In this document: positions 280-52,259 of the stretch, piece after piece | How the letters are laid out: each line of letters starts with the position of its first letter | How positions within the stretch are numbered: position 1 is the first letter of the stretch | From: Alphaproteobacteria bacterium | Lineage (GTDB): Bacteria > Pseudomonadota > Alphaproteobacteria > MPNO01 | Direction of reading: 5' to 3' | DNA: 64,000 nt | Assembly (NCBI GenBank): GCA_964291675.2 | Contig: OZ219866.1 | Span: forward strand, 96,001 to 160,000 | The notes under the pieces: generated by a model | Told to the model about the DNA's origin: nothing | Databases searched by the model: none | The model's input: the letters and a program-made list of their open reading frames with translations, nothing else | Program-made: the position numbers and the translations under genes

Positions 280-282
280 GAC

Positions 283-1969: not shown

Positions 1970-1970
1970 G

Positions 1971-5160: not shown

Positions 5161-5843
5161 TCGACCCTCCAGCCCGCGGGCTCCAGCACGACCCGGACCC
5201 AGGCGGCCTCGCGGTACACCCCGTCCGCATCGACGAAGGGCGCGATCCAGATCCGCGCGACGACCTCCTCGGTGCGCAGATCGTCGGCGTCGGGGTCTTC
5301 CTGCGCAGACTCGCTCCGCACGCGGCCGGGATCGGCCGGAAGGGCGGCGGCTGCCGGTTCTTCCAGACGCGCAGCGTCCGGTCCCTCCGGGTGAGCCGAC
5401 GAGGCCGCCGTGTCCGTCTCCCGCGCGGTGCGGGCCGCTGGCGCGTCCCTCTCCGCGGCGGCACGCGCCGGTTCCGGCTCGCCGGCGGTGGCTCGCTCGC
5501 CGCCGCCATCATTGCCGTCACCGAACAGCCGCGCGAGCCAGGCGAGGGGATCGAACCCGCCGCATTCGGCCTCGCAGGACCGGCCCGCCCCCGGCGGCGC
5601 TCCGGGCGCCCGCTCCGCGTGGGGCCGCCAGAGCGGCTCGCGCAGCACGGTGTTCTCCCCGGCGGCCGGGTCCGGCACCGCCGGGTCGGCCTCCGCCACG
5701 CTGCCGCAGGACCCGCCCTTCGGCAGCGGGCACTGCCACTCGTCGCCCACATGGGTCGCCGCGCAGCCGGCGAGCAGCAGCGCGGCCAGCGCGGCGGCCG
5801 GGACCCCGGCCCGGCGCGGCGCAGGTGTCTTCGGATGCGTCAT
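5157..5843 (-). CDS. traV: TraV lipoprotein
   Basis: Lipobox LLAGC, Cys pair WQCPLPKGGSC, C-terminal RIWIAPFVDADG...W. Confidence 0.88.
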   Translation of the reverse strand: MTHPKTPAPRRAGVPAAALAALLLAGCAATHVGDEWQCPLPKGGSCGSVAEADPAVPDPAAGENTVLREPLWRPHAERAPGAPPGAGRSCEAECGGFDPLAWLARLFGDGNDGGGERATAGEPEPARAAAERDAPAARTARETDTAASSAHPEGPDAARLEEPAAAALPADPGRVRSESAQEDPDADDLRTEEVVARIWIAPFVDADGVYREAAWVRVVLEPAGWRVE

Positions 5844-5844
5844 C

Positions 5845-7113
5845 TCACTCTCCCTTGCGTGCCGTCAGGACGGGGCCGCGGCCGTCGATGCGGGCGCCCT
5901 CGAGGAACACCAGCGTCACCCGCGTCCCGGCCTGGAGCTGGATCACCGGCTGGTACTGCTCGGCGCGGCGGATCATGTAGTCGGCGACCTTCTGCCCGGC
6001 GGTGCCCGCGCCGGCGCCGAGACCGGCCCGCCCGATGTCGCTCAATCCCGTGTTCGCGACGGCGGCGCCGGTCCCGGTCGCCACCGCCTGGGGCTGGAAC
6101 GCCTGCGCCACCCCCTGGCCGAGGCCCGAGACCATGCCGGCGAGAAACGCCTTCTCCACGAGCGCGCCCTCGCGGCTCACGACGGGCCCGCGCACCCCGG
6201 TCTTGCCCGAGCCCGCGACGAACCCGGCGACGTCGGTTTCGACCACCGTGCCGGACTCAGGGCCGGCGCAGGTCATGGTGCGGAAGCGCACATAGACCTT
6301 CTCCGAGGAGAGGTCGCCGTGGGCGGCGCCGGTCACGGTGCAGCCCTCGACGTCGACTGCCAGGGCCGTCCCGTCCTCGGCGGCGGTCCAGGCAGGGCCG
6401 GTGATGCGCATGAGCACCGGGCGGGGATCGCCCTGGGAGGAGACCCCGGCCGAGGCGTCGACCCCGGCCAGCACCACCGCCTCGGCATGGGCGCCGGCCG
6501 GCAGCCACACCGAGACCGGCTTCGCCACCGCATCGGCGACCATCTCCGCGCCGCTGCGGGGGTCGTGCACCGACGACTGCGGCGCGCCTTCCAGCTCGAA
6601 GGTCTCGATCATCCGCCCCGGGAGCGGCGCCGCCGGTTGCGGCTGCCCGCCCGCCGGCGGCGCGTCGCCCTGCACCCGGAAATACTCGCCCGACCCCGGC
6701 GCGGCGCCCGGCGGCGGTTCCACGCCGCGCCGCAGCTCGTCGATGACCACCGCCTGGCGGTCGATGACGGAACGCGCGTCGGCGGCGTCCGCCTCGAGCC
6801 GGGCGCGCAGCCGCTCGTTGTCGGCGCGGAGCGTGCGCGCCTCCTGGCGCAGCTCGCGGAGCTGCGTCTCGATCCCCCCGAGCCTGGCCTCGGAGCGCCG
6901 CGTCCAGACCTTCTCGGCGGCGTCCGGTCCGGCGATCTCCGCCTCGATGCCGCCTCGCGGCGCGCGCTCCCCGCCGCCGCCCATGCCGAGCCAGGCGGCG
7001 AGACCGAGCAGCAGCACGGCCGCAACGACGGAGAACAGAAGCAGCTGGCGCCGCCTCACCGCCCCGGCGTCGCCGGGGTCCGCGCCGGTGCGGAAGTTCC
7101 GGCCCGCGCTCAC
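5845..7113 (-). CDS. traB: TraB (VirB10-like) pilus assembly protein
   Basis: TM and coiled coil, then GVDAS, GDLSSEKV, GVRGPVVSREG, ADYMIRRAEQYQPVI motifs. GTG 7113 overlaps the traK stop. Confidence 0.92.
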   Translation of the reverse strand: MSAGRNFRTGADPGDAGAVRRRQLLLFSVVAAVLLLGLAAWLGMGGGGERAPRGGIEAEIAGPDAAEKVWTRRSEARLGGIETQLRELRQEARTLRADNERLRARLEADAADARSVIDRQAVVIDELRRGVEPPPGAAPGSGEYFRVQGDAPPAGGQPQPAAPLPGRMIETFELEGAPQSSVHDPRSGAEMVADAVAKPVSVWLPAGAHAEAVVLAGVDASAGVSSQGDPRPVLMRITGPAWTAAEDGTALAVDVEGCTVTGAAHGDLSSEKVYVRFRTMTCAGPESGTVVETDVAGFVAGSGKTGVRGPVVSREGALVEKAFLAGMVSGLGQGVAQAFQPQAVATGTGAAVANTGLSDIGRAGLGAGAGTAGQKVADYMIRRAEQYQPVIQLQAGTRVTLVFLEGARIDGRGPVLTARKGE

Positions 7114-7865
7114 AGCGGCTCTCCCGCAACGGACTCGACGACCGCCACGCCGAGCCGTCCGCTCTTCGGTCCGGTGCCGGGCTCCGCCAGCCACAGCGCG
7201 GCGACTCGCCAGACACCGGGAATGCCGCCGATGGTCCCGGCGAGGCCCGCGGCGCCCTCCGCACCCTTGGGCGCCGGACGCGCGGCCTCGAACACGAGCG
7301 CCGCCAAGCGCGGACCCCGCCAGGTCTCGATGAAGCTCAGTCCGGCAGGCGCCGCTGCGCTCGCCGCATGGATGGAATATCCCGGCAGCGGCTCGCGCCG
7401 GGCGACGGCGCGCACCAGCCGCACCAGCGCCGCGACATGGGCACCGCCCGCCGATGCCGGGGCCACCGCCGCCGCGCCCGGCAATGCATTCGCGTTCCGG
7501 ATCAGGATCTGCGCCGAGTCCCGCGCCGAGGGCGTCAGGGTCAGACGGTAGGTGAAGCCCTTCTCGGTGCCGACGAAGAGCGTCACGGGGTTCCGGTCCG
7601 CGGAACCCCGGCCGGCAGGCCTCAGATAGAGGTCGCCCGAAACGGCGTCGTGCTCGACCGCAAACCCGTCCGGCGCGCGCACCGCCTTCGCGATCCGATC
7701 GCCGTGAAGCGCGATCCGGTTCACATGCGTCGCGGAGATCTCCGCCCGCAGCTCGGCATGGTCGGCCGCGTCGAGAATCTGCATCGCAAGCGCCGGCCCG
7801 GGCGCCGCGAGGACAAGGTGTATCGCAAGCAGCAGCCCGAGCCGCCGTTGGTGGGTGCGTGTCAT
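7110..7865 (-). CDS. traK: TraK (secretin-like) protein
   Basis: Signal peptide, ISATHVNRI, GDLYLRP, TLFVGTEKGFTY; lies between traE and traB. Confidence 0.85.
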   Translation of the reverse strand: MTRTHQRRLGLLLAIHLVLAAPGPALAMQILDAADHAELRAEISATHVNRIALHGDRIAKAVRAPDGFAVEHDAVSGDLYLRPAGRGSADRNPVTLFVGTEKGFTYRLTLTPSARDSAQILIRNANALPGAAAVAPASAGGAHVAALVRLVRAVARREPLPGYSIHAASAAAPAGLSFIETWRGPRLAALVFEAARPAPKGAEGAAGLAGTIGGIPGVWRVAALWLAEPGTGPKSGRLGVAVVESVAGEPL

Positions 7866-8434
7866 CGTTCACTCTCCATTTGTTCGAAGCGCAGGAGCCC
7901 GATCCGGCCCGCGTCGATGCGGAAGGCGAGCCGGTAGCGCCGGTCCTCGCGCGCGGCCTCTTCGCGGCCGATCCAGGTCACCAGCTCGCCCGCGACCTCG
8001 ACGCTGAGCCGTCCGGGGTCGGCGGTAATCTCCGCGGGGTAGAAGGCGCTCGCCATGTCGCGCCCCGCCATGCGCGCAGCCTCGGCCTCGACCCAGGCGC
8101 CGATCGCGCCCCTGGCCGATGCATGGCTCATCCGCGCCGCCGCGCTGCGCACGTGGGCCGCGTTCTCCGGGGTGAGCGTGAGCAGCGTCACCGTGACGGT
8201 GCGCGCCACGTCCTCCAGGTAGCGCGCGCCCGCGAGCCCGGCGCCGGCACCGCCGCCGCCGATCTCCCAGGCCGGCCCGGCCGTGGCCGGGACCAGCACG
8301 GTGACCGTCTCGCGTCCGGCGAACCCCACGGTGAGCGCCAGGTTCGCCGCCATCGACAGGATCAGCAGCCCGGCCAGTGCCAGGCGGACGTCCCGCACCC
8401 GGCGGATGGCGGAGTCCATGTCGGTGCGCCTCAT
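7862..8434 (-). CDS. traE: TraE conjugative transfer protein
   Basis: N-terminal TM, TVLVP, YLEDVA...LTLTPEN, SAFYP motifs; operon position. Confidence 0.88.
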   Translation of the reverse strand: MRRTDMDSAIRRVRDVRLALAGLLILSMAANLALTVGFAGRETVTVLVPATAGPAWEIGGGGAGAGLAGARYLEDVARTVTVTLLTLTPENAAHVRSAAARMSHASARGAIGAWVEAEAARMAGRDMASAFYPAEITADPGRLSVEVAGELVTWIGREEAAREDRRYRLAFRIDAGRIGLLRFEQMESER

Positions 8435-8441
8435 CGCCGCC

Positions 8442-8750
8442 TCACCCGGCGAACCGGCGCAGATGGCTCGGCGGCGTCGCCTTGAGACGCAGCACGAAGT
8501 CCGGCAGAAACCAGTAGAGCGCGTAGCGCGCGATGTTGGCCCCGCCGCCGCGCTTCATCCGGCGCAGCAGCAGCCAGCCCCCGACGCCGGCAATGAGCCC
8601 CGCCACGAACTGGTTCGCGGCCAGCCCGAGCAGGGCCGGGCCCATCAGCGCCGCCGCCTCGTCGACGGTCCAGAACAGCCAGCGCTCCGGATCGTCGAGC
8701 CGGCGGGGAATGACATGGCGGGCGGTGTCGTTCATCGCACGCCCCGTCAC
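8442..8750 (-). CDS. traL: TraL conjugative transfer protein
   Basis: IPRRLDDPERWLFWTVDE...YWFLP signature. Confidence 0.92.
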   Translation of the reverse strand: MTGRAMNDTARHVIPRRLDDPERWLFWTVDEAAALMGPALLGLAANQFVAGLIAGVGGWLLLRRMKRGGGANIARYALYWFLPDFVLRLKATPPSHLRRFAG

Positions 8751-9061
8751 ACGATCGCCGTGCCGACCAGGCCGGTGACGATGCCGACGCCCGCGCCCGC
8801 GGCGATGCCGACGCCGACCGCGCCCATCAGCTGCATCGCGTTGAAGCGCAGCACCGAACCGACCAGCGCGGCGCCGACGGCGAGCGCCGCGGCGAGCTGG
8901 CCGCCGGTGCCGCCGACGATGTTCTCCACCGTGTCCAGCGGCGCGCCGAAGGTCGTGTCGGTGGTCGCCAGCGCCGCGTCCGCGCCGGCCAGCACCGCAA
9001 GCGCCGCGAGCGCCGCCGCCCCGAGGGCCGCGCGCATCCGTCCCCGCGCCCGGCCCCTCAT
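8747..9061 (-). CDS. traA: Conjugative pilin (TraA-like)
   Basis: 104 aa: signal peptide plus two hydrophobic helices, directly upstream of traL. ATG 9061 overlaps the stop of the HTH gene. Confidence 0.8.
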   Translation of the reverse strand: MRGRARGRMRAALGAAALAALAVLAGADAALATTDTTFGAPLDTVENIVGGTGGQLAAALAVGAALVGSVLRFNAMQLMGAVGVGIAAGAGVGIVTGLVGTAIV

Positions 9062-9339
9062 CGCTCCGCTCTCCCCGGCTCGGAATCCTGCCCTCCAGGT
9101 TCGGGGGCCGGGGCGGGCGCCGGCCCGGGCCGCGGACCCGAGCCGTCGTCCGAGGTCGAACGCCGCCGCCGGGTCTTCGACCAGTGGTCGAGGTCCTCGG
9201 CCAGGTAGCGCACCGCCGTGCCGAACAGGTGGTACACCGGCCCGCCGCCCGTCACCCGGTAGCGGTCGAGCGTGCGCGCCGACAGGCCGAGATGCTCCGC
9301 CGCCCGGCGCGTCGACAGGTACTTGCTCCCGTCCGCCAT
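9058..9339 (-). CDS. Excisionase / recombination directionality factor-like HTH protein (RdfS/AlpA-like)
   Basis: YLSTRRAAEHLGLSARTLDRYRVTGGGPVY...VRYLAEDLDHW...RRSTSD. GGAGA SD upstream; first gene of the tra operon. Confidence 0.88.
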   Translation of the reverse strand: MADGSKYLSTRRAAEHLGLSARTLDRYRVTGGGPVYHLFGTAVRYLAEDLDHWSKTRRRRSTSDDGSGPRPGPAPAPAPEPGGQDSEPGRAER

Positions 9340-9427
9340 CTCCGTCTCCTTCTCCGAACTCCCCGGCGCCGCGCGGTCGCGGGCGCATGTGCGGGGCCAT
9401 CCAAGCGAAGACGGGCGCGCGGCGGCA

Positions 9428-9456
9428 GGGAGAAAAACAGGGCCGGAAATTCTCCC
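9428..9456. promoter_or_regulatory. Inverted repeat GGGAGAA-N15-TTCTCCC, candidate activator (FseA-type) box
   Basis: Perfect 7-bp arms about 90 bp upstream of the excisionase-like ATG. Confidence 0.55.
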
Positions 9457-9466
9457 CCCGGCAGGC

Positions 9467-9506
9467 GGCGCCTCACGGCGCCTCCCGCCGTCTGACGGTG
9501 CCTGAC
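9467..9506. repeat. Four tandem degenerate 10-mers (GGCGCCTCAC, GGCGCCTCCC, GCCGTCTGAC, GGTGCCTGAC)
   Basis: Read directly from the sequence; helical-turn periodicity. Confidence 0.5.
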
Positions 9507-9896
9507 GTGCGAATCCGCCAACTCGCCGCCTGCCGTGTCTGACCGCGCGATCGCGGGACGGACGGGCCGATACGCGCGAATCGGCGGACCGGCAACAAAC
9601 GGCCGGTCGCCCGGATTGCAGAGTGCCCGGTCCGAACCGGGCGGTGGGTCAGAGGTTGGCGATTCCGGTCCGGGCGGCACCTCGCGTGCCGGCCCGCCGG
9701 GGAACGGCGGACTCGGCATCGGGCGCCGACCGGACGCCGGCGCTCACCCGCCCGGACGGCGTTTCCCGATCGTTGCCGTCAAGGTGCGGCTTGCGGGCAT
9801 CGGTGGCCGCAAGATCGAGAACCCGTGGTGAAGCCGGTGAGAATCGGCAGCCGCCGAGACGGGCGCAATGGCTCCGCGCGGTGCGGCGCGAGACGA

Positions 9897-10633
9897 TCAG
9901 CCGCCGTCCCGCCGCTTCCGCTCGATCGCGCTCGCCTTGTCCAGCCGGTAGCGGACCCGGCCGCGCAACCAGTCGCTCGTCTTCCAGTGCTTCTCGACCT
10001 CGTCGAGGCCCCAATACGCGATCGCGATCTCGCGCTGCGACGCCACCTCCGCCCGGTTCAGCGCCAACACCATCAGCAGTTCCCGTTCCTCGCCCACCGA
10101 ACCCGCCCTTGCCGAGGGGCCGGACCCCCGGAGACGCTCCACAGATCCATCAGCCGGGCGATCTCAATCGGTAGTTCCAGCCCATAGTCGTGGTAGAGCC
10201 GGAGGCCGCCGCCGGCGAGCAGCGGACCCTCCTTCGTCACCAGGATCTGCACCGCCCGCCCGTCCTGCTCGATCTTGACGATCAGGGTCCCGTCGAGAAG
10301 CCGCAGCCCGTCGATGCGCGCGCCCGCATCCGCAAGCATCGGCAGGAACGGCCGCGCCTTCGACGACCCCTCGCCCTCCAGCGTTGGCTCGCCGGCCAGA
10401 AACGGCGAGGCCGGGCCGTCGCGCGCGAACGGGTTCTCCCACGCCGCGATCTGCCAGGGGTCGCGCGCCGCAAGGTCCGCTGCCGACTGGACGCGCACCG
10501 GAAAGGCGGTCTCCTTCTCATACGCCGGGGACTCAGAGTGCGCCTCGAACGCCTCCTGGTACGTCCGCAGGTTGCGCAGCAGCTTCCAGATGCGCGTGTC
10601 GCCGCCCGCCGCCGGCGCGCCCCCGCGCGCCAT
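9897..10633 (-). CDS. FseA-like transcriptional activator (DUF6499 N-term + DUF2285 C-term), split by a 1-nt frameshift at ~10075-10140
   Basis: ORF 10073..10633 has IWKLLRNLRTYQEAF and WQIAAWENP. ORF 9897..10142 has ASQREIAIAYWG..V.KHWKTSDWLRGRVRYRL (DUF2285-type). The span is 737 nt (3n-1). Confidence 0.7.
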
Positions 10634-10636
10634 GCC

Positions 10637-13600
10637 CTACCAGCGCGCCGTGAGGCCGAACCCGATGCGGTGCTCGGGCACGTCGCCGGCACCGTCGCGC
10701 CGCACCGCGTCGAGATGGAGCTCGAAGCCCCCGCCCCCCGCCGGGGCGAGCCGCCAGCCCAGGCGCAGCTCGCGCGCCGTGTCCGACAGCCCCATCCCGA
10801 CATGCGGCGTGCCCGTGAAGCCGCCGCCGAACAGCGCGATGCCGTAGCCCATCTCCGCGTCGAGCCGGCTCGACAGGGGCGCGTCGTCGTTCGCGGCCAG
10901 CCCGGACGCGTCCGGCAGCATCCACAGACGCTCCGAGCCGCCCGGGTCCGCGCCCCAGGACGGCGTGAGCGAGGCGGAGAGGCCGCGCCCGGCGGCGCCC
11001 GGCACCAGCCTGAGCGACCCCGACACGCCCCATTCGTCGTAGCCGCCCTCGGCATGCGCCGCGAGACCGTGCACCTTCAGCGCCATGTCGAGGCCCCGCG
11101 ACGGGTCCGCGTAGCCGAGGCCGGCCCCGAGCTCGAAGCCCGTCCCGGTCTCCGCGTCGCCCCCGTCATGGCGCAGCCCCAGCTCCACCGACGGCGTCAG
11201 CGCCGCGCCGCCCGCGAGCGCGAACGTCCGCGAGCCGTCGAGCACCGCCCGCAGCCGGCTCGCCTCGGCCCGCGCCGCCGCGAGGTTGCCCGCCTCCGGG
11301 GTCGAGACCGAGGCCGACTCCGTCCGCACCCAGAACGCGTCCGCCTTGAGCGCGAGCGCGAACCCGCCGGCTTGCGCCGGCGTCACGAGGTCGCCCCGCA
11401 CCCCCATCGCCGCCAGCGTCATCGAGAGGTCCGCGCCATAGCGCTCCGCCGTGGCGCCGTCGAGGTCGAGGGTGAGGCGCCCGGAGCCCGTCCCCGCGAG
11501 ACCCCACGCCGAGACCCGCTCCGAGAGCGCGACCCGCGCATAGGGCAGCATCGTCGTCACCGCGCTTCCCATGACATAGCTCCGGCCCGCGCCCCGCGCC
11601 GTGCCTTCGCCCAGGCTGTGGGTCATCGCGAACCCGGTCAGCAGACGGCCCCGCTCGTAGTCCATGCCCATCGAGCCGGTCGCGGTCTCGCCGCTCAAGC
11701 TGAGCCCCGGACCGGCGCTGGAGAACCGCGACACCGAGGCGCCCTGGCCCCAGCCCGTCCACTGCGACCCCGCGCCGCTCCCGAGCACCGCCCGGAACGA
11801 GGTCCCCATCAGCAACTCGCGCCCGCTCATCGTCCGTGAGGCGTCCCCGGACGGCTCACCGGACCACGACAGCCAGTCCGCGCCGCCGCGGCCGCCCGCC
11901 GGTGCCGGCGGCAGGCCGGACCCGGAGCCGTCGAGCGACAGGCGGTGCCCGCCCAGCGTGAAGTGCGAGCCCGCATCGCGCGGCGTCTCCAGCCGCGCCG
12001 TCACCGCCGCCACCGCGTCCGCCGCCGCCGCGCGCCCGAACCGCGTCAGCCAGTCCTGCTGCACGGGTCGGAGTTCACGATGGTGCCGGTCGCCTCGCCG
12101 TCGGCGATCGCCGCGCCCTTCGCCTTGCTCAAGCGCAGCGTGAAGGTCTCCGTGCCCTCGTCGTGCGCGTCGTCGAGCACCGGCACCGAGACCGTCTTCG
12201 CCGTCTCGCCCGCCGCGAAGGTGAGCGTTCCAGAGGCCTTGCTGTAGTCCTTGCCCGCCTTCGCCGTGCCGTTCTTCGTCCGGTAGCGCACCGTCACCTC
12301 ATCCGACGCGGCGCGCGAGAGCGTCACCGCGAAGTCGAGCGTCGCGCCCGCGCCCTCCTGCGCGCTGGCGTCCGCCACCGAGAGCCCGGGCGGTCCCTGC
12401 ACGGTGTGGGTCAGCGCGCTCCCGAGCTTGCGCCCGTCCGCGGTACAGATGGCCCCCGCGGCCGCGCAGTCCGCCGTCGCCGGCAGCGCCACCGTCACCG
12501 GCCCGTGCGAGGAAGGCTTCACCGTGAGCGCCCACCGGTCGCCGCGCCGGCCCACCTGCCGCACACGCTCCAGCGTCCCGCCCGTCACCCGGAACGCCGC
12601 CGCATCGGCGTTGCCCGCGACCGGGGCCGAGAACGCCACGCGCAGCGAGAACTTCCCCTTGCCACGGTGCTCCGACGGCGCCGCCTCGAAGCGCGCCGTC
12701 AGCGGCGCCAGTGCCTGCCGCGCCGCCGTCGCGTTGGTCACCGCCCGCCCCGAGATCCGCGCCACGTCGCCCCGGGGGCCGCGCAGCCTGCCCGGCCCCG
12801 AAGGCGGCAGGTAGTCCATCGTCACCGCATCGCCCGCGCTCACCGCCGGGCTCAGCGCCAGCGTCACCGTCCGACCGCTCACCGCCACCGACGAGACCGC
12901 GTGCTCGGCCCGCGTCGACTTCACCGAGAAGGCGCTGCCCGGCGGCACCGCCGAGGCGTCCAGGTCCGCGTCGAACGCCAGCGTCAGCGCCGCCCCGTCG
13001 ACCCGCGCCGACGACACGCCGGGCGGCGCCGACTTCTCGGGCGGGTTGCCCTGCTGCCCCGACGGCCCCCCCGGCGTGCCGGCAGTCGTCGTCACCGTCG
13101 TCTTGTAAGCCTCAATGTCCGGCTTGCCCTTCGGCCCGAGCACCAGCACCCGCACTTCGTACTCGGTGCTGTGACGGAGACCCGGCAGCGTCACCCGTGG
13201 GTGCGCCGCATTCGTCGAGTGCTCCTTGCTACCCCACCAGAGGGTATTGCCCTTGTAGCGCCACTCGATGCGATAGGCGCAGTGCTCGTGCGCGTTCGCC
13301 GCCCGCCACGTCACCTCCAGCGACGTCCGCTCGGCCAACGTGCCGTGTTGGTCCGTGTACCGGGTCAGCCCTCCCTTCGTCACCTTGAAGTCCGTGAGTC
13401 TCAGGCCGTAGATGAACTTGGTTGCCGTCAGGCGCAACGACACTCGCTGCCGGTCCTTCCAGCCCAGCCCGGTCCCCGCCCAATAAGCGCTATTACCCGA
13501 CGGGATTATGTCGTCGTAGGCAAACGGAACGCCATCCACCAACAGCGTCAGCCCGGCAAGTTTACTCCTGGCGTAAGCGCCAGAAATTCCCGTGAACCGA

Positions 13601-13986
13601 ATGGAAAAATCGCCGTTTGCTGAGGTCCAATAGAGGGCTTCTACGGTGAATGTGGTGCCTCCATGCGTGAACTCGTGGTCCGTGAGGGCAACCGAGCAGT
13701 CGTCTTGACTGGAGGCAGAGTCGTCGCAACCGTAGACGCCGAAGTCCCGGTCCACCGTCAGCGTCGTGGACCAGAGGGTCTGCGCCTGGGCCGGCGCGGC
13801 GGCGAACAGGGAGAGCGCGCCGAGCAGCAGAGCGAGGACGGGCAGGAGAAGGGCGAGGCGGGCGCGCCCGCCGCGCGGGTCAGGCCGGGAGCGGTCCCCG
13901 GGCGGCGTCGGTCCCGACGACGGACACCGGGACGGGGCGGAAGCGGCCGATCGGTGCGCGCCGGCCTCGCGCCGGGCGCACGTCAT
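10637..13986 (-). CDS. Large autotransporter/adhesin (signal peptide, FN3, SwmB-like, Calx-beta, C-terminal beta-barrel), split by a 1-nt frameshift at ~12064
   Basis: ORF 12046..13986 (AQAQ signal; FN3 LRHSTEYEVRV; Calx-beta GTAKAGKDY..GTLTFAAGETAKTV) plus ORF 10637..12064 (WLTRFGR, LGLRHDGGDAETG, terminal ARW). One added base gives NSDP-x-QQDWL. Confidence 0.85.
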
Positions 13987-14370
13987 GCCGCTGGGCCGCT
14001 GGGCCGCTGGGCCGCTGGGCCGCTGGGCCGCTGGGCCGCTGGGCCGCTGGGCCGCTGGGCCGCTGGGCCGCTGGGCCGCTGGGCCGCTGGGCCGCTGGGC
14101 CGCTGGGCCGCTGGGCCGCTGGGCCGCTGGGCCGCTGGGCCGCTGGGCCGCTGGGCCGCTGGGCCGCTGGGCCGCTGGGCCGCTGGCCGCTGGGCCGCTG
14201 GGCCGCTGGGCCGCTGGGCCGCTGGGCCGCTGGGCCGCTGGGGCTGGGCCGCTGGGCCGCTGGGCCGCTGGGCCGCTGGGCCGCTGGGCCGCTGGGCCGC
14301 TGGGCCGCTGGGCCGCTGGGCCGCTGGGCCGCTGGGCCGCTGGGCCGCTGGGCCGCTGGGCCGCTGGGCC
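13987..14370. repeat. Tandem octamer repeat (GCCGCTGG)n, ~48 copies, two imperfect units
   Basis: Read directly. A 7-nt unit at ~14186 and a 6-nt unit at ~14241; the array abuts the autotransporter ATG. Confidence 0.97.
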
Positions 14371-14372
14371 TA

Positions 14373-14404
14373 ATTATACCACCGGGGGACCCTGGCGAAG
14401 TCAA
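14373..14404 (-). promoter_or_regulatory. Candidate sigma70 promoter: extended -10 TGGTATAAT, with TTGACT 20 bp upstream
   Basis: Perfect TGnTATAAT at 14381-14373, placing a start site at the edge of the repeat. The -35 spacing is non-canonical. Confidence 0.55.
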
Positions 14405-14566
14405 CAGAAAACGCATGTGTGATCCACCCATCGAACCCTCCGCTCGCATGCTCAACGCCCCCCGTTGCACCCCGCTCGGGCCGCCGGACCGTTCCGACCG
14501 GGCCGGCCGCATCGCGGCGACCGGCCGGCTCCAACCCGAACCATAAGACAGTTGGCTGAAATCGTT

Positions 14567-14584
14567 CCTATCAATGCTGATAGG
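14567..14584. promoter_or_regulatory. 18-bp palindrome CCTATCA-ATGC-TGATAGG (lux-box-like CT-N12-AG)
   Basis: Perfect 7-bp arms in an AT-rich patch; 21 bp from TAnnnT hexamers on both strands. Confidence 0.65.
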
Positions 14585-14856
14585 TTTTGGTAAAAAATTT
14601 TGCGCTAATGTCTCGCGGCCCGCCGGCGCCCGCCTTGCCGCCGAATCGCCGCCATGCTCTTTGTCCCCCAGCAAACCCGCCACGAGTTGAACTTGCCGCC
14701 GCCAGTTTCGAGAATGGACACACCCGGTAGGGTCAAGTCGCGACGAATCGCCGTCGCCGGACGCCCGCATGTCGCAGGGGCGCCGGTCGCCCGGCCCGAC
14801 GCGGCGACCGAGCCTGCGCAGCCGACGAACGGAAACACCGCGCCGGGGGGAACGGC

Positions 14857-16008
14857 TTGAGCGAGCGCGACGCCTTCGACGCCATCCTGGCCGCCCTGCA
14901 CGAGGCGGCCCTCGACGACGCAAGCTGGCCGGCCGCCAGCGGGCTGGTCGACGAAGCCTGCGGGATCAAGGGCAACCTGCTGACCCATGGCGCGGGCGCG
15001 TCCCCCGACGACCACGTCGTCTACCTGCACCGCATCTGCTTCCGCGGCGAGCGCTGGCCGGACGCCGAGCGCGGCTATTTCGAGGAGTACTTCGCGCAGG
15101 ACGAGCGCGTGCCGCGCCTGCGGGCGCTGCCCGACAGCCGCCTGGTCCCCGCCGCCGAGCTCTTCACCGACGAGGAGAAGAAGACGTCGGCGGTCTGGAA
15201 CGAGGCGCTGCCGATCATCGGGATGCAGGACGGGCTGACCGTGCGCCTGGACGGCCCCGGCGGGTCGCGCATCTTCTGGAGCCTCGCCGACCCCGCCGAC
15301 GGGAACGGCTGGCCGTCCGCGCGGATCCGCACGGTCGAGCGTCTGCTCCCGCACCTGCGCCAGTTCGTGCGGGTCCGCAAGGCGCTGGCCGACGCCGACG
15401 GCCTGAACGCGTCGCTTGCGGCGCTGCTCGACAGCACCGCCGCCGGGATCCTCCAGCTCGACCGGCGCAGGCGGATCGTGGCGGCGAACGACCGCGCCCT
15501 CGACCTGCTCAGGGAGCAGGACGGGCTCCTCGACGAGGACGGCTTCCTGCACGCCCCCGCGTCGGCCGACGACCACCGCCTCCAGCTTCTGCTTGCGCGG
15601 GCCCTGCCGCCACTCCCCGGCGCCGGCGCCGGCGGCTCGCTGGCGCTGACGCGCCCGGCCGGCTCGCTCCCGCTCGTGCTGCACGTCATCCCGCTCGGCC
15701 CGCGCGAGGACGGCATCTCGCCCGCGCTGGCCGCGGCGCTCGTCCTGGCGGTCGACCCGGGCGCCCGGCCGCCGGTCGATCCCGCGCTGGTCCAGGCGGC
15801 GCTCGACCTCTCGGCGGCGCAGAGCCGGGTGGCGGCGCTGCTGGCCGAGGGCAGGTCCGTGCGCGACATCGCCGTGGCGATCGGGCGCAGCGAGAACACC
15901 GTGCGCTGGCACATAAGGCGGATCTTCGAGAAGCTGCACATCACCCGGCTGGCGCAGCTGGTCCAGCTGGTGCGCTCGCTCGCCGACCCCGCGGCCGCCA
16001 ACTCGTGA
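14857..16008 (+). CDS. LuxR-family transcriptional regulator with N-terminal sensory (GAF/PAS-like) region
   Basis: C-terminal LSAAQSRVAALLAEGRSVRDIAVAIGRSENTVRWHIRRIFEKL; PAS-like ILQLDRRRRIVAANDRA; TTG start. Confidence 0.88.
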   Translation: MSERDAFDAILAALHEAALDDASWPAASGLVDEACGIKGNLLTHGAGASPDDHVVYLHRICFRGERWPDAERGYFEEYFAQDERVPRLRALPDSRLVPAAELFTDEEKKTSAVWNEALPIIGMQDGLTVRLDGPGGSRIFWSLADPADGNGWPSARIRTVERLLPHLRQFVRVRKALADADGLNASLAALLDSTAAGILQLDRRRRIVAANDRALDLLREQDGLLDEDGFLHAPASADDHRLQLLLARALPPLPGAGAGGSLALTRPAGSLPLVLHVIPLGPREDGISPALAAALVLAVDPGARPPVDPALVQAALDLSAAQSRVAALLAEGRSVRDIAVAIGRSENTVRWHIRRIFEKLHITRLAQLVQLVRSLADPAAANS

Positions 16009-17270
16009 GTTCGATGCGCGAGACCGTGCGGTTCCTGCTCGCCCACGCGGCGACGGCGGGGGAGCGCCGGCGGACCGGCGTGGCCTGGAACCCGCTGTCC
16101 CCCAGCATGGCCCAGGACCCGTATCCCGTCTATGCCGTCATGCGCCGCCGCAGCCCGGTGCACCGCAGCCGGCTGGCGAACGCCTGGCTGTTCTCGCGCC
16201 ACGCCGACGCCGACGCGATCCTGCGCGACCATCGCCGCTTCGCCAGCGACCCGCGCAAGGGCAGGCTCACGCGCCGCCAGCAGGCCATGCTGCCGCCGGC
16301 GGAAGAGTTCACCATGCTCTCGCTCGACCCGCCCGACCACACAAGGCTCAGGGCGCTGGTGAACAAGGCGTTCACGTCGCGCGCGGTCAACGCCATGGAG
16401 GCGCATATCCGCGCGACCGCGGCCGCGCTCCTCGACGAGGCCGACGCCGCCCAGGGCTTCGACCTCATGACCGCGCTCGCCCAGCCCCTGCCGGTGATCG
16501 TGATCGCGGAGATGCTCGGCGTGCCGCCCGGGGACCGGGACCGGTTCAGGCTCTGGTCGGACCGGCGCGCCCGCCTGCTGGAGCCCACGGTCAGCGCCCG
16601 CGAGCGCGCCGTCGCGATGCAGGCAGGTCGCGACTTCGACTCCTATTTCCGGTCGATCGTCGCCGAGCGCCGGGCCGAGCCCCGCAACGACATCCTGAGC
16701 GCGCTGGTGCAGGCGGAGGACGAGGGCGAGCGGCTGACCGAGCGCGAGACACTCAACATGCTGCGCCTGCTCGTGATGGCCGGCAACGAGACCACCACCA
16801 ACCTGATCGGCAACGGCATGCTCGCGCTGCTGCGCAACCCGGACCAGCTCCGGCGCCTGCGCGACGACCCGGGCCTCATCCCCACGGCGGTGGAAGAGCT
16901 GCTGCGCTACGACCCGCCGGCCCAGGCGTTCTTCCGGCGCGCGGTCGCGGACTGCGAGGTGAACGGCTTCGCGCTGCGCAAGGGGGACAACATCATCCTC
17001 CTGATCGGCGCCGCCAACCGCGACGAGCAGGCCTTCGACGACCCCGACCGGCTCGACGTCGGCCGCGCCGAGTGCCCGCACCTGAGCCTCAGCCGGGGCA
17101 TCCACTACTGTCTGGGCGCCCAGCTCGCGCGGCTCGAGGCCCGGATCGTGTTCGAGATGCTGCTGGAGCGGTTCCCCGAGATCGAGCTGCTCGACGACCG
17201 GCCCCGGTTCCGCAGCGGCGTCGTGCTGCGCGGCCTCGAGTCCCTGCCGCTGCGAGGCGGCCGCGCCTGA
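16005..17270 (+). CDS. Cytochrome P450
   Basis: DPPDHTRLR, I-helix AGNETT, EELLRY (ExxR), heme motif LSRGIHYCLG. GTG overlaps the luxR stop (alternative ATG 16014). Confidence 0.95.
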   Translation: MSSMRETVRFLLAHAATAGERRRTGVAWNPLSPSMAQDPYPVYAVMRRRSPVHRSRLANAWLFSRHADADAILRDHRRFASDPRKGRLTRRQQAMLPPAEEFTMLSLDPPDHTRLRALVNKAFTSRAVNAMEAHIRATAAALLDEADAAQGFDLMTALAQPLPVIVIAEMLGVPPGDRDRFRLWSDRRARLLEPTVSARERAVAMQAGRDFDSYFRSIVAERRAEPRNDILSALVQAEDEGERLTERETLNMLRLLVMAGNETTTNLIGNGMLALLRNPDQLRRLRDDPGLIPTAVEELLRYDPPAQAFFRRAVADCEVNGFALRKGDNIILLIGAANRDEQAFDDPDRLDVGRAECPHLSLSRGIHYCLGAQLARLEARIVFEMLLERFPEIELLDDRPRFRSGVVLRGLESLPLRGGRA

Positions 17271-17455
17271 GCGCCTCGCGCAGACCGGCAATACCCCGTC
17301 AAATCTGGCCGTTCTCTGCGACCTCTATGGACATGTGCGGGCGCCCAAGACCACGCCGGTCAAGCGTCGTCTCAAACTCGGCCCTGGACGTTTGTCCCCG
17401 CACTCCGGCAACCGAAACTGGCGGGACTCCATTCGTCCCGGCGGGCGGTCGGCGA

Positions 17456-18727
17456 TCAGGCGAGTACCAGCCTGTCGAAGTCTATCGCTCCTCCCTCCGC
17501 AAGACACTTCAGGATACCTCGGCGGCACAGGTCACGGCCTTCATTGAAATTCTCCACATCCGATGACGATGGTTCGGAGTTGCGGTTGGCATGGACTACG
17601 TCCGACGCCTTGCCGTAGACCTTGTGGAGGAGCTTCCGGTAGCGAAGGCGCTCCTCAAAGCCGTTACCCAGATGCAGCGCTCCGTGGATCGATAGCCGGA
17701 ACTGCAACTCCCGGCCGTCGGCGTACAGAGCCTCCAAAGCGATCCTGAGGTCCACCAAGCGGTCGTTGTACGGCGCGCTGTCGTCACGCGCCTCGCGCCA
17801 GCGGTGAATCGCCGTGTCCAGCCGGTGGGCTCCCGCCGCCTCGCGATGTCTGTAGATGCTCGCCGCCTCGCTCAGCTTGTCCGCCGAGAGTTCGACGTAT
17901 GCCCCGCTGTGCGATGGAATGCCGTGGAATGACATGTTCGTAGGCTGGCAGACCTCCCGCAGTTCCTCACCGTAGTCCCACCAGCACGCTGTCCATCGAA
18001 CGCATTGGTCGTGAGCCAGCGACAGCGCCTCACAGAACCTGTCGATGTCGAAGTCGGGTATGGCGACCTGACGTTCGGGCGGCCAGGGCGCCGAATCGGC
18101 CACGGGTTTGCAGATTCCAGGCAAGGCCGACTGGTACTCGACAGTCAGGAGGACCTTCCCAAGGTACAAGTCGTAGGACTGAAGGAATGCGGCCGCCATC
18201 TCCGGGTACAGGCGGACAAGTTCATCCGTGGATCGGGGCATGACGGACAGCCTGAGGCCGTCCTGTCCCCGCACAGTCGCGGGGCTCCGATCGGCTGGAT
18301 GCGCGTTGAGGAGGTACAGCTTCCAGTACGAAAAAAGCTCACCGCCCATCCATCGGTGCAGCTCGTTGACCACCCACTCTGGTCCCAGGATCGCGCCGCT
18401 GCGAAGCAAGTGCTTGGCAAGTGCATTGAGTGGAATACTTGAGTGTCCCTGAACCGGGAGAATGAGGCCGAACCCGATGTGGTCCTCGTCGTCCAGATAG
18501 TCGGCGAGAAGATTGCGTAGCGCGTCGACCAGTTCAACCATGGCGGGATGGGTGTGTTCGATGTCGGTAATCAGGGCCCGGGGGCGAAGACCCGCCTGGT
18601 AACGCGTGCGCAGTGTCGTTGCGTCCACATACGACACCGGCGTCCCGTATTCGACGATGCCGAACCGGCATTGCGCGACGGCGGCCGCGAACAGTTCTGT
18701 TATCTCCGCGCGAGTGGGAATGGCCAT
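17456..18727 (-). CDS. ApeA-like HEPN domain protein
   Basis: C-terminal DLRIALEALY...ELQFRLS...VYGKASDVVH pattern typical of ApeA-type HEPN domains. Confidence 0.6.
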   Translation of the reverse strand: MAIPTRAEITELFAAAVAQCRFGIVEYGTPVSYVDATTLRTRYQAGLRPRALITDIEHTHPAMVELVDALRNLLADYLDDEDHIGFGLILPVQGHSSIPLNALAKHLLRSGAILGPEWVVNELHRWMGGELFSYWKLYLLNAHPADRSPATVRGQDGLRLSVMPRSTDELVRLYPEMAAAFLQSYDLYLGKVLLTVEYQSALPGICKPVADSAPWPPERQVAIPDFDIDRFCEALSLAHDQCVRWTACWWDYGEELREVCQPTNMSFHGIPSHSGAYVELSADKLSEAASIYRHREAAGAHRLDTAIHRWREARDDSAPYNDRLVDLRIALEALYADGRELQFRLSIHGALHLGNGFEERLRYRKLLHKVYGKASDVVHANRNSEPSSSDVENFNEGRDLCRRGILKCLAEGGAIDFDRLVLA

Positions 18728-19048
18728 GACGGTGTCCTCGGATGTTCCCGATCCGGATGGAGTCTCTTACACGGAAGGACGATGGTGGACCAATAGACGA
18801 TGGAGCGCCGCCCGTAGGCACCCGCGCCGCCTTCGGCCGGGGACTCTATCGCCTACGCGGTGCCTGCCCGAAGCTTGTCGGGAAACCCTGCTGACCGCCA
18901 AACGATTCCTCGTTCGCCAGTATCCGTTCGGCGGCCGGGGGATGCGATGCAAGACCGCTCGCTTGGGTCCGCCCCCAGGCACTCTTGATGACCCATCACC
19001 CGGCAGGCGAAGCCGGTTGTTGAAGCGCGATGCCGACCGGAGGTGGTG

Positions 19049-19459
19049 ATGCCCGGTGTCGAGGATCTGTACAGCGCGATCGATGCCGATGACGTCGACC
19101 GGATCGAGCGACTGCTGACGATGTAGCCCGGTTTCGTCAACTCCACCGACGAGGCGCCTCCTCCGATTCACTGGGCGATCTACCGAGACAGACGCGGAGC
19201 GGTGGAGGTGCTTCTGAACCATGGGGCGGATCTCGCGCTGCGGGATCGGGATCGCGATGCAACGCCGCTCGACTATGCGGTCGTGTACGCGCGAAGGGAA
19301 TTTATCGCGTTGTTGATCTCGCGTGGCGCCAACCTCGATAGCGGAATGCAGGTTGCGCTCAAAGGCGCTTCCGGCGGATTCGAGGAATATGCCGAGTTGC
19401 CGGACCGCCGACAGTATGAGACGATTGTTGACCTGCTTCGTGAACTTGGTTCGCCATGA
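19049..19459 (+). pseudogene. Ankyrin-repeat protein with in-frame TAG at 19124-19126
   Basis: GGAGG SD and ATG 19049. MPGVEDLYSAI..LLTM*PGFVN..PPIHWAIY..VEVLLNHGAD..TPLDYAV..LLISRGAN all in one frame. Confidence 0.8.
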
Positions 19460-19811
19460 CCTCGCGCCCTCCGGCAGGTTCCCCAATGTCAATCTGCAGC
19501 GGAGAGACCGCCCCGATGAACGGTCGCCGACTCGTCAATGCGCGGAGTGCGCCGCCATACCGTCCGCGCCATTGCTCGTCTGCGTCGGCTGAAACCGCGG
19601 TAGTGCCGGGACGGCAGGGCAAGGCTGGCCACCAAGCTCCGGCCGTTGCCGCATCCCCGGGAACCCGAACGCTTACGCCCGGGATAGTACGTGTTCGTTC
19701 AGCGAGTGATGGCGGTGACCAGACCACCGATCCCAACCGCCCGCGATCGGGCAGTACATGAAATCCGCGCCGGCGCGGCGATGTAAGCGATGCCGGAGAG
19801 CCACCCGGCTT

Positions 19812-21392
19812 TCAGCTTGACGGCGGGATGAAGTTCCAGGGCATGAGCTCGTCGATGCAGCTGTTCGGGTGGCCGTTGGCGATGGCTTCAAGGGTGGCCT
19901 TGAGCCAGGCGTAGGGTTCGATGCCGTTCAGTTTCGCGGTCTCGATGAGCGAAGCTATGCGTGCCCATGCGGCGGCGCCTTCGTCGTGACCGGCGAACAA
20001 TGCGTTTTTGCGATTCAGGGCAATCGGCCTGGCGAGATTCTCGACACTGTTGCTGTCCATCTCGACGCGCCCGTCGGCGAGGAAGAGTTGGAGGCCGTCC
20101 CAGTGGCGGGTGATATAGGCGAGCTTCTCGCCGAGCCGCGACTTGGGCGAGACGCGGGCGCGCTGCTGTTTCAGCCAGTCGCCGAAGGCCTGGACCAGGG
20201 GCGCGCTGCGCGCCTGGCGTTCGGCGAGGCGCTGCTCGGGCGCGCCGCCGCGGATCTCGGCCTCGATGGCGTAGAGTTCGGCGATCCGGCGCAGGCCCTC
20301 GGCCGCGATCTCCGAACCGCTGCTGTCGTAGATTTCGCGAAGCCGGCGCCGACAATGCGCCCAACAGTATGCCAGCCGCAGCGGCGCGCCGCCCTTGCGG
20401 CGCAGACCGGTCAGCCGGTTGTAGCCGGCATAGCCATCGACCTGCAGGATACCGTTGAAGCCGTCGAGGAAGCGCTCGGCATATTCACCGCCGCGCCCGG
20501 GCGCGTAGAAGTACACGACGCCCGGCGGATCGGGTCCGCTCCAGGCGCGGTCGTCGCGAGCCAGCGCCCACAGCCAGCCGGTCTTCGTCCTGCCACGGCC
20601 CGGATCGAGCACCGGCGCCCGGGTCTCGTCCATGAACAGCTTCGAAGAGCGTTTGAGATGCTCCGCCAGCCGGTCGGCCACCGGCTTCAGATGGAACGAC
20701 GCCTTGCCGACCCAACCGGCCAAGGTCGAGCGGTCCAGCTCCAGACCCGAGCGGGCGTAGATCTGTACCTGGCGATACAGCGGGGTGTGCTCGGCGTATT
20801 TGGAGACCAGCACATGGGCGATGGCGCCCTCGGTCGGCAGGCCGCCCTCGATCAGCCAGGCCGGCGCCATGGCCTGGGTGACGCCCTGCTCGCAAGTCCG
20901 GCAGGCGTATTTCGGCCGCACCGTGACGATCACCCGCAGCTGCGCCGGCACGATGTCCAGGCGCTCGCTCCGGTCCTCGCCGATCTTCACCATCTCCCCA
21001 CAGCCGCAGGGACAGAGCGTGCTCTCCGGCTCGATCACCTGCTCGATCCGGGGCAGGTGTTCCGGCAAATGGCCGAGATTGCGCGCCGGGCGAGGCCGCT
21101 TCGGCGAGCGGACCGGCGACAGATCTTCCGGCGCCGCTGCGGTCTCCACCTCAGCAGACGCGCCCTCCAGGTCCTCGAACGCCAGCTGGCGTTCGTCCGC
21201 CGACAGCTTCTCCGACCTCTTGCCATACACGACACGCTGTAGTTCGCGCACCAGATGTTCCAGACGACGGATGCGCTCGGACTGCGCCTCGTTCTCGGCC
21301 GTCAGTGTCTCCAGCGCTGCAAGCGCCTGCCTCGCGGCTGCCGCCTGTTCGGGCGTCAGCGTTCCGAGGTCGATCTCCGCAAGCGCTGCCAT
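19812..21392 (-). CDS. tnpC: IS66 transposase TnpC
   Basis: YGKRSEKL, CPCGC zinc finger, MDET, QVDGYAGY, CWAHCRR, DSNSVE, LMPWN. Confidence 0.96.
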   Translation of the reverse strand: MAALAEIDLGTLTPEQAAAARQALAALETLTAENEAQSERIRRLEHLVRELQRVVYGKRSEKLSADERQLAFEDLEGASAEVETAAAPEDLSPVRSPKRPRPARNLGHLPEHLPRIEQVIEPESTLCPCGCGEMVKIGEDRSERLDIVPAQLRVIVTVRPKYACRTCEQGVTQAMAPAWLIEGGLPTEGAIAHVLVSKYAEHTPLYRQVQIYARSGLELDRSTLAGWVGKASFHLKPVADRLAEHLKRSSKLFMDETRAPVLDPGRGRTKTGWLWALARDDRAWSGPDPPGVVYFYAPGRGGEYAERFLDGFNGILQVDGYAGYNRLTGLRRKGGAPLRLAYCWAHCRRRLREIYDSSGSEIAAEGLRRIAELYAIEAEIRGGAPEQRLAERQARSAPLVQAFGDWLKQQRARVSPKSRLGEKLAYITRHWDGLQLFLADGRVEMDSNSVENLARPIALNRKNALFAGHDEGAAAWARIASLIETAKLNGIEPYAWLKATLEAIANGHPNSCIDELMPWNFIPPSS

Positions 21393-52258: not shown

Positions 52259-52259
52259 C

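Follow-up and report, generated by a model that had tools for sequence, protein, structure and literature searches.

A split FseA/RovC-family activator gene with a conserved -1 frame relation, and its candidate frameshift site, in an integrated F-type conjugative element

Main finding

The DNA studied here is a 64,000-nucleotide stretch of an alphaproteobacterial genome (NCBI GenBank assembly GCA_964291675.2, contig OZ219866.1, positions 96,001 to 160,000 of the forward strand; hereafter the window, whose first letter is position 1), and the interval 9058-17270 is the regulatory end of an integrated F-type conjugative element. This interval holds a transfer activator gene that is split over two reading frames, and we consider, with a probability of about 0.6, that the split is a programmed -1 ribosomal frameshift which throttles transfer of the element. 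We infer that most ribosomes would finish the first open reading frame (ORF1) and release a protein without the DNA-binding domain, and that in a minority of passages the peptidyl-tRNAPro on the rare codon CCU, which is preceded by a C, would slip back by one base and re-pair with CCC, probably assisted by G tracts or a G-quadruplex (G4) 5-6 nucleotides (nt) downstream. The shifted product would be the full-length activator of ~245 amino acids (aa), which is predicted to bind an inverted repeat and to turn on the excisionase-type gene rdfS and the mating-pore genes. A large adhesin gene ends 3 nt before the activator gene, and the two are probably co-transcribed. The parts of the activator gene are as follows.

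9897-10633, minus strand: activator gene, two frames
10073-10633, minus strand: ORF1, DUF6499-like helix and middle domain, 186 aa, frame 0; the part up to 10115 would be fused to ORF2
9900-10115, minus strand: ORF2, DUF2285/RovC DNA-binding domain, 72 aa, -1 frame; stop codon at 9897-9899
10115-10118, minus strand: proposed -1 shift site C_CCU, with CCU in the ORF1 frame
10082-10108, minus strand: G-quadruplex motif made of four tracts of three G, with its start 6 nt beyond the shift codon on the 3' side; candidate stimulator of the shift

Identity of the activator

As judged from family profiles and paralogues, the two-frame gene encodes a divergent activator of the FseA/RovC family. The profile of the ORF1 family (A3) gave a single match in the PDB, to residues 12-83 of RovC (E 7e-6), and that of the ORF2 family (A2) matched residues 193-250 of RovC (6xz5) with an E value of 2.9e-15. 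Since the two profiles match both ends of the single 252-aa RovC chain, ORF1 and ORF2 correspond to the ends of one RovC/FseA-type chain. Among the relatives, PF10074 (formerly DUF2285) was matched by 18 of 29 ORF2 proteins with a best E value of 3e-13, and PF20109 (formerly DUF6499) by 2 of 23 ORF1 proteins; a paralogue in the same genome (L001) matched both families above their cut-offs. The hallmark motif AWEFLRRN of DUF6499 is present exactly in locus L040 and appears in ORF1 of the window in the degenerate form IWKLLRN. Structure prediction contributed little, as the AlphaFold model of ORF1 alone had a predicted local distance difference test score (pLDDT) of 55, too poor for a fold search, and the predicted complex of ORF1 (alignment A1) with ORF2 (A2) scored 0.02, which is no evidence either way.

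Reading frames and shift site

Related loci came from reference genomes (12), from metagenomes (9) and from 78 searched genomes of the host's order (30). Of the 24 genera covered by this last search, 2 had the activator family, and a single genome held as many as 10 copies (G024). After removal of duplicates, 37 unique loci had both activator parts; these are related and so not independent. The DUF2285 part was in the -1 frame at 36 of them, in the +1 frame at one (L036) and in frame at none. This constancy contradicts the earlier note on this DNA, which had supposed that the activator needs to be repaired.

The junction carries an in-frame C_CCU (NCCCT[C/T]) at 34 of the 37 loci and C_AAA_AAA_G at two (L001 and L040), and neither is found in L038. 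In 950 confident ORFs of the genome, the codon CCT accounts for 2.1% of the 27,961 proline codons and AAA for 7.7% of the lysine codons. The tRNAPro set of the genome comprises CGG, GGG and UGG anticodons, and a tRNA reading CCU by wobble would be expected to pair fully with CCC after slipping back by one base. The position of the shift is bounded on both sides: in L005 and L015 the stop codon of ORF1 directly follows CCU CGG, which sets the 3' bound, and in the window a stop codon of the -1 frame 88 nt before the ORF1 stop sets the 5' bound.

Purifying selection changes frame at the shift site. The ratio of nonsynonymous to synonymous change (pN/pS; Nei-Gojobori method, NG86, on the ungapped core of 15 close relatives) was 0.22-0.55 for frame 0 in the 33 nt 5' of the site and rose to 1.1-1.5 in the 21 nt 3' of it, and for frame -1 it was 1.05-1.96 on the 5' side and 0.51-0.64 on the 3' side. 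The signal in frame -1 starts upstream of the first possible start codon. In the stretch from helix 1 to helix 2 (10031-10067, +48 to +84 nt) pS of frame -1 was 0.04-0.07, and the near absence of synonymous change there suggests a constraint at the nucleotide level.

Natural in-frame fusions of the two parts were found in 3 of 254 relatives (P0134, P0142 and P0172), and in P0172 the sequence at the predicted joining point of the shifted product is ...PPAPSS.... Where ORF1 was matched over its full length (136 relatives), 122 had a tail of at most 37 residues after the match. The 107 close relatives of ORF1 were almost all 103-204 aa long, and inspection of the four with 233-244 aa revealed no clean fusion.

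Two candidates were rejected in the course of this analysis, namely a 278-aa open frame in L002 as a fusion, which is merely an open frame in G+C-rich DNA, and reinitiation at an ATG overlapping the ORF1 stop (TGATG), as this ATG is not conserved. The sole +1 locus (L036:1465-2300) has the junction CCC_CCU_CCC, where a +1 slip of tRNAPro is conceivable and a mutated copy equally so.

G tracts downstream of the site

A G4 motif, defined as four tracts of at least three G with loops of 1-8 nt within 60 nt downstream, was present at 23 of 36 sites and in 476 of 58,316 G+C-rich background windows (0.8%), and the cluster of tracts begins 5-6 nt past the CCU. Counted over 45 nt, the sites averaged 3.5 G3 tracts against 0.9 for the background, and the two A-run sites contain 0 and 1. 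When G4 energies were allowed, the minimum-energy fold contained a three-layer quadruplex at this place in the window and in three distant paralogues, and RNAalifold gave no convincing conserved Watson-Crick structure around the site. According to PMC3919603, G4 RNA can stimulate -1 frameshifting in engineered constructs, and our hypothesis is that the quadruplex acts as the stimulator of the shift here.

Alternative explanations

Several points weigh against a programmed frameshift. The regulatory steps are predictions from sequence comparison. The window copy of ORF2 scores 19.9 bits on PF10074 (E 1e-3; cut-off 26.4) and ORF1 has no Pfam match, PF20109 included, so that family membership rests on the profiles and paralogues; of the DUF6499/DUF2285 assignment of the earlier note, the DUF2285 part is upheld for the family and the DUF6499 part appears plausible for it, neither through the Pfam scores of the window copy. 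C_CCU is not a canonical X_XXY_YYZ heptamer, and re-pairing of one tRNA is proposed; we know of no characterised bacterial -1 site of the C_CCU form. The frame -1 pN/pS at +48 to +84 nt is high (0.7-3.9), through the scarcity of synonymous change. A glycine-rich linker is encoded by the same G tracts, so coding may account for part of their enrichment. Since the related loci are kin, their counts overstate independence. Both traC and the adhesin gene are broken in this assembly, and this copy of the element may be inactive or the assembly may contain insertion/deletion (indel) errors. Finally, in the clade of the window (16 loci with an SVGEE-type junction) helix 1 is preceded, at a distance of 6 nt, by a GTG that has AGGG 8 nt 5' of it, and a separately initiated DUF2285 protein of 66 aa is possible there.

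This last point belongs to a two-subunit explanation, in which ORF1 and a GTG-started ORF2 would be separate, translationally coupled genes whose products act as non-covalent partners, or in which ORF2 would be a QseM-like antiactivator, with no frameshift at all. The GTG and its AGGG are kept throughout the clade of the window, overlaps of the ATGA and TGATG type likewise give a -1 offset, and QseM offers a precedent, since this DUF2285-only protein can bind the DUF6499 helix of FseA (PMC10359603). However, in 8 of the 37 loci the second frame offers no start codon (ATG, GTG or TTG) from its upstream stop as far as helix 1, and the ATG at the ORF1 stop of the window is lost in L005, L009 and others. 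The PF10074 match of L001 begins at the A run, upstream of helix 1, natural fusions exist, and separate initiation leaves unexplained the rare CCU, the A6 run at the same place and the switch in selection 21 nt before the GTG. We therefore regard two subunits as possible but unlikely. Decay or artefact appears very improbable; on this view the split activator would be a pseudogene, or would stem from an indel in the assembly as the breaks of traC and the adhesin gene might. In its favour, those two breaks are absent from orthologues, and contigs of three runs have an extra letter at 12063 in the adhesin gene; but the -1 relation of the activator holds for 36 of the 37 unique loci, which show 33-79% identity and come from many assemblies, some of them short-read, both parts are conserved at the protein level with selection following the frame of each at the junction, and a contig of run X1, an independent assembly, spans 10072-10214 without a gap.

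A programmed -1 frameshift is accordingly the reading that we prefer. A more far-reaching form of it, to which we give tentative credence at somewhat less than even odds, is that this clade evolved a second throttle, independently of the +1 site of FseA, in the form of a -1 slip of a single tRNA on a rare C_CCU stimulated by an RNA G-quadruplex 5-6 nt downstream. Frameshift control would then have arisen twice in the family, in opposite directions and at two different boundaries between domains. The many F-type elements that share one genome, with pilins that are nearly identical, would each keep an activator/box pair and a repeat-tuned adhesin of their own.

The tra operon and the rdfS promoter

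Downstream of the activator in the order of the proposed cascade stands an operon of transfer genes headed by the rdfS homologue.

9428-9456, minus strand: inverted repeat GGGAGAA-N15-TTCTCCC, conserved in the aligned upstream regions
9399-9406, minus strand: conserved core GCTTGGAT, ~22 nt after the inverted repeat
9058-9339, minus strand: rdfS homologue, winged-helix protein of the HTH_17 family, 93 aa (PF12728, 26.9 bits), heading the tra operon
8747-9061, minus strand: traA-like pilin precursor (weak TrbC/VirB2 pilin match, E 0.21)
8442-8735, minus strand: traL (PF07178 TraL, E 1.6e-30)
7862-8434, minus strand: traE (PF05309 TraE, E 9e-31)
7110-7865, minus strand: traK (PF06586 TraK_N, E 1.8e-18)
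5845-7872, minus strand: traB, VirB10/TrbI-like (PF03743 TrbI, 99 bits, residues 457-659)
5157-5843, minus strand: traV lipoprotein (PF09676 TraV, E 5.7e-8)
2636-5160, minus strand: traC, F-type ATPase (TraC_F_IV, 273 bits for 3925-5160), in two frames with a break at ~3961-4021

The product of 9058-9339 is, by sequence, a direct homologue of RdfS of ICEMlSymR7A, as its residues 3-69 aligned to residues 15-81 of RdfS (PDB 8dgl_A) in a phmmer search with 59.5 bits and an E value of 3.1e-15. Its TGA overlaps the ATG of the pilin gene (ATGA), which bears out the claim of the earlier note that an excisionase-like gene is coupled to traA-L-E-K-B-V-C. TraA is 83-96% identical among the related loci with an intact TraA, and its gene always lies between the rdfS homologue and traL. 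TraL, TraE, TraK, TraB, TraV and TraC, together with an F-type TrbI (TrbI_Ftype), all score above their Pfam cut-offs, so that the machinery is a type IV secretion system (T4SS) of mating-pair-formation type F (MPF-F). The open frame of traB overlaps traK, and its actual start is probably near 7100. With the intact 859-aa TraC of L003 as the tblastn query, residues 1-406 were found in one frame and residues 388-854 in another, and this break may be an assembly indel error or mean an inactive pore ATPase.

The 200 nt 5' of the rdfS homologue are conserved in the alignment of related loci, and the promoter region 9399-9456, with its inverted repeat and core, is a candidate activator box; the activator gene lies ~560 bp further upstream of this promoter. 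Other activator clades have different inverted repeats at the same position, GGGTCGTTTT-N8-AAAACGACCC in L036 and CGTTTTC-N7-GAAAACG in L037. On this comparative evidence, the repeat arms differ by activator clade, as expected of activator/box pairs that diverge together. Just 5' of the inverted repeat, a partly conserved element GGCGCC-GTGA-GGCGCC (9471-9486) could be read as a 6-bp stem with a GNRA-type loop.

The gap between the activator and rdfS varies among the loci. Where it reaches ~2 kb or more, it holds a conserved convergent gene, of ~217 aa in L005, L008, L011 and L014 and of ~275 aa in L007, L009 and L013; neither has a Pfam match. These genes are not in the window, and it is possible that they are extra regulators. 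The gap of L008 additionally contains a Mu-type transposase and a HigB/helix-turn-helix (HTH) pair, and ORF1 of L013 is broken up by a 2.5-kb insertion.

Adhesin and octamer array

The gene directly before the activator encodes a large surface adhesin with a repeat array in front of it.

14374-14379, minus strand: -10 box TATAAT of the adhesin promoter, directly upstream of the array
13987-14370: octamer array, 48.4 copies (CCAGCGGC on the gene strand; Tandem Repeats Finder score 747, 98% matches)
10637-13986, minus strand: surface adhesin, whole, with a frame break at ~12046-12064 in this assembly
12046-13986, minus strand: adhesin passenger, repeat-rich (fn3, SWM_repeat and Calx-beta in Pfam)
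10637-12064, minus strand: C-terminal helix and large outer-membrane beta-barrel of the adhesin, ending 3 nt before the activator ATG

In its orthologues the adhesin gene is a single ORF, whose length ranges from 788 aa to over 3200 aa. The barrel model (pLDDT 70) showed an N-terminal helix and ~20 long strands, and its best matches were large barrels such as LptD and TonB-dependent receptors, at template-modelling (TM) scores of 0.2-0.45; the beta-domains of BrkA, Hbp and EspP matched it in part only. No Pfam, NCBIfam or PDB-profile match to the 12-strand Autotransporter domain (PF03797) was obtained for the barrel, and its profile against PDB sequences gave chance matches only. Of the autotransporter named in the earlier note, the outer-membrane barrel was recovered in the model and a classical autotransporter domain was not recognised. 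It is plausible from the model that the barrel is an autotransporter in function; membership of the class is not borne out.

The linkage of adhesin and activator that the earlier note had pointed out proved tight in most related loci. The order barrel-ORF1-ORF2 is kept in 11 of the 12 reference-genome loci and is followed by rdfS-traA in 10 of the 12. The same module is also present in distant paralogues, whose activators are 33-44% identical and whose TraA and TraL are 91-96% identical.

The TATAAT box and the octamer unit recur upstream of the adhesin gene of L010 (~3.5 copies) and at a second site in the genome (29 copies). The -10 box is conserved in all three array copies, and TTGACA precedes it in L010. 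At the place of the octamer array, L003 (2363-2445) has a pentamer array of GCCGA in ~17 copies upstream of its adhesin gene. Such arrays fit repeat-mediated tuning of adhesin expression.

The LuxR-P450 pair

Divergent from the adhesin gene lies a pair of genes on the plus strand.

14567-14584: palindrome CCTATCA-N4-TGATAGG, 18 nt, in the AT-rich divergent intergenic region; candidate LuxR-type box
14857-16008, plus strand: LuxR-family regulator with PAS domain and GerE HTH (GerE E 8.6e-10, PAS_8 E 5e-5)
16005-17270, plus strand: cytochrome P450 (PF00067, 99 bits), overlapping luxR by 4 nt

All the NCBIfam P450 models scored below their cut-offs for 16005-17270. Every gene and repeat that the earlier note had listed for the interval was present, in its order and at or near the positions it gave, and its description of the LuxR protein as not sensing acyl-homoserine lactone (AHL) agrees with our searches. 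The LuxR-type gene has no Autoind_bind domain (PF03472), and the 93.7%-complete genome gave no match to PF03472, for which the Escherichia coli control did match. PF00765 had no match in the genome either, but its control matched nowhere, so that this result carries no information. No TraR/AHL system or QseM was found.

The earlier note had also proposed a conserved cascade, in which the P450 would produce or break down the ligand of a non-AHL LuxR, and this LuxR would induce the adhesin-activator operon and through it rdfS and tra. We consider this circuit improbable. In its favour are the 4-nt overlap of luxR and the P450 gene and the palindrome in the divergent intergenic region, and L003 has a LuxR, 46% identical, and a P450 by its adhesin gene. 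There, a palindromic box of the type GATACCTCCC, of the same design as the palindrome of the window and different in sequence, occurs once upstream of luxR and twice upstream of the adhesin gene. These three copies are the only hint, from sequence, that such regulators feed the adhesin-activator operon. But L003 is the only one of the 12 reference-genome loci with LuxR-P450 beside it, and its P450 gene is divergent from luxR and so not co-transcribed with it. Furthermore, the single palindrome of the window lies ~190 nt from the adhesin -10 box, the pair stands at the edge of a low-G+C insertion with IS66 and an integrase, and nothing connects the chemistry of the P450 with the PAS domain. This distribution marks the LuxR-P450 pair as variable cargo. 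That LuxR controls the adhesin/activator operon stays an inference, and the predicted conservation of the order luxR-P450, adhesin, activator and rdfS-tra failed, as other genes take the place of the pair elsewhere.

The genes past the adhesin were read in the seven loci whose 10-kb flank reaches beyond it.

L003: LuxR-type gene
L004: GAF-histidine kinase-receiver-OmpR hybrid
L005: further Ig/fn3 surface protein, with a LysR gene beyond
L006: RTX protease
L008 and L011: Tc-toxin-like genes
L010: integrases

The presence of another kind of regulator upstream of the adhesin in L004 and L005 also counts in favour of the circuit, and it is conceivable, more loosely, that every element carries a sensor of its own at this position. 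The Tc-toxin-like genes were identified by Pfam only, through ABC_toxin_N and TcA_TcB_BD domains upstream of the adhesin (L008:2-5251 and L011:5143-5625).

Genomic setting

The host is an alphaproteobacterium of ~75% G+C, and the window lies on its 3.66-Mb contig C2, from which we conclude that the element is chromosomally integrated. A megablast comparison of positions 1-20000 with PLSDB plasmids gave short tra and transposase fragments only. Beyond the P450 gene, a region of low G+C (17300-47100, 53-68%) separates it from the TrwC relaxase and resembles a defence island inserted into the element; it also encodes a UvrD-like helicase, an N6/N4 methylase, a ResIII endonuclease and PLD-type nucleases.

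1-17.3 kb: ~75% G+C, with the tra genes, rdfS homologue, activator, adhesin and luxR-P450
19812-22190: IS66 set, within the low-G+C insertion
22660-23805: tyrosine integrase, within the low-G+C insertion
44291-47086: MmeI-type enzyme, within the low-G+C insertion
47336-52282: TrwC-type relaxase, in high-G+C DNA beyond the low-G+C insertion

Several more copies or remnants of such elements are present in the same genome (G000), at C1:258-262 kb (L002/L037), C2:3.236-3.240 Mb (L001/L046), C2:3.050-3.064 Mb (L062) and C2:20 kb. One copy, on a second contig, has the barrel, a split activator (40% identical), rdfS, and traA and traL at 91-93% identity. The window DNA or a near relative of it is present in sponge metagenome runs, one RNA library among them. 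This library (X2) yielded near-identical contigs over 9323-9530, 9696-10047 and 10173-10604, which were set aside as evidence of expression because contigs cannot show transcription and DNA carry-over is possible.

Significance

FseA offers the classic example of ribosomal frameshifting as a brake that a conjugative element puts on its own transfer. If the frameshift proposed here is true, it would be a second and mechanistically different one in the FseA family, and a translational throttle on the activation of integrative and conjugative elements would have been favoured repeatedly, and not one particular sequence. A -1 site other than a heptamer, possibly stimulated by a G-quadruplex, would also join the short list of bacterial recoding signals; C_CCU with a G-quadruplex would, as far as we know, be the first natural bacterial -1 signal of such a type. 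Gene callers and curated FseA sets that rely on the +1 site would miss a -1 clade. Here, moreover, the FseA/RdfS logic goes together with an F-type pore and with a neighbouring adhesin that repeats may tune, in bacteria whose DNA occurs in sponge metagenomes, and this widens the known reach of the control system.

Comparison with known systems

The closest system is FseA (Msi172-Msi171) and RdfS of ICEMlSymR7A, which shares with the window the activator family, with its DUF6499-like, middle and DUF2285 parts, and a gene in two frames (PMC10359603, PMC4755241 and PMC11963761). In ICEMlSymR7A, a dimer of FseA binds an inverted repeat just upstream of the rdfS promoter and activates rdfS and the downstream transfer genes (PMC11963761 and PMC10359603). 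The target is thus shared too, as an inverted-repeat promoter stands before the rdfS gene that heads the transfer genes, and the RdfS proteins are direct homologues (E 3e-15). The shift itself differs. FseA makes a +1 slip of tRNAPhe on UUU_C by the WGL motif, right after DUF6499, a feature of ~61% of 4709 curated homologues (PMC10359603 and PMC4755241). In the window, the frame change is -1 and not +1, the shift codon is CCU (or an A run) and not UUU, and the WGL region, where an FseA-type +1 shift (UUU_C, WGL/UGGGGG) would fall, is read through in one frame. The break comes ~80 codons after WGL, between the middle domain and DUF2285, so that the unshifted product keeps the middle domain. In the available text of the searched FseA literature no C_CCU-type -1 site was found, and the curated list of 4709 homologues (PMC10359603) might contain members of this clade. 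What the sequence comparison points to as new is a -1 split that separates the middle domain from DUF2285 and differs from the +1 site published for FseA. The mating pore is F-type and not of the ICEMlSymR7A type, and an adhesin gene directly precedes the activator, unlike in ICEMlSymR7A.

RovC of Yersinia (6xz5) is the only solved relative, with the N- and C-part profiles of the family aligned to its two ends, and it is one uninterrupted chain, unlike the product of the two-frame gene of the window. RovC is an activator of a type VI secretion system (T6SS), and so regulates a secretion system and not conjugation.

With the -1 frameshifts of dnaX and of insertion sequence (IS) elements, the proposed mechanism shares a second product from one mRNA and a stimulator 5-9 nt downstream (reviewed in PMC5009743). 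Two paralogues have an A-run variant, C_AAA_AAA_G. The window has no X_XXY_YYZ heptamer, and its candidate stimulator is a cluster of G tracts, not a hairpin or pseudoknot.

Phase variation of surface proteins by simple sequence repeats is well known in Neisseria and Haemophilus. The array of the window is similar in being a short tandem repeat of varied copy number (48, 29 and ~3.5) at the promoter and leader of an adhesin gene, but it lies between the -10 box and the start codon, and not between the -35 and -10 boxes or inside the reading frame.

In the F plasmid, TraJ acts on PY, which drives traY-traA-traL-traE-traK-traB-...-traV-...-traC. In the element of the window, too, an activator gene comes before a small gene for a DNA-binding accessory protein, after which the pilus and pore genes follow in the same order, and the T4SS is F-type as well. 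The parts in the regulatory positions are different, with an FseA/RovC-like activator in place of TraJ and an HTH_17 RdfS homologue in place of the ribbon-helix-helix protein TraY, and the element is chromosomal.

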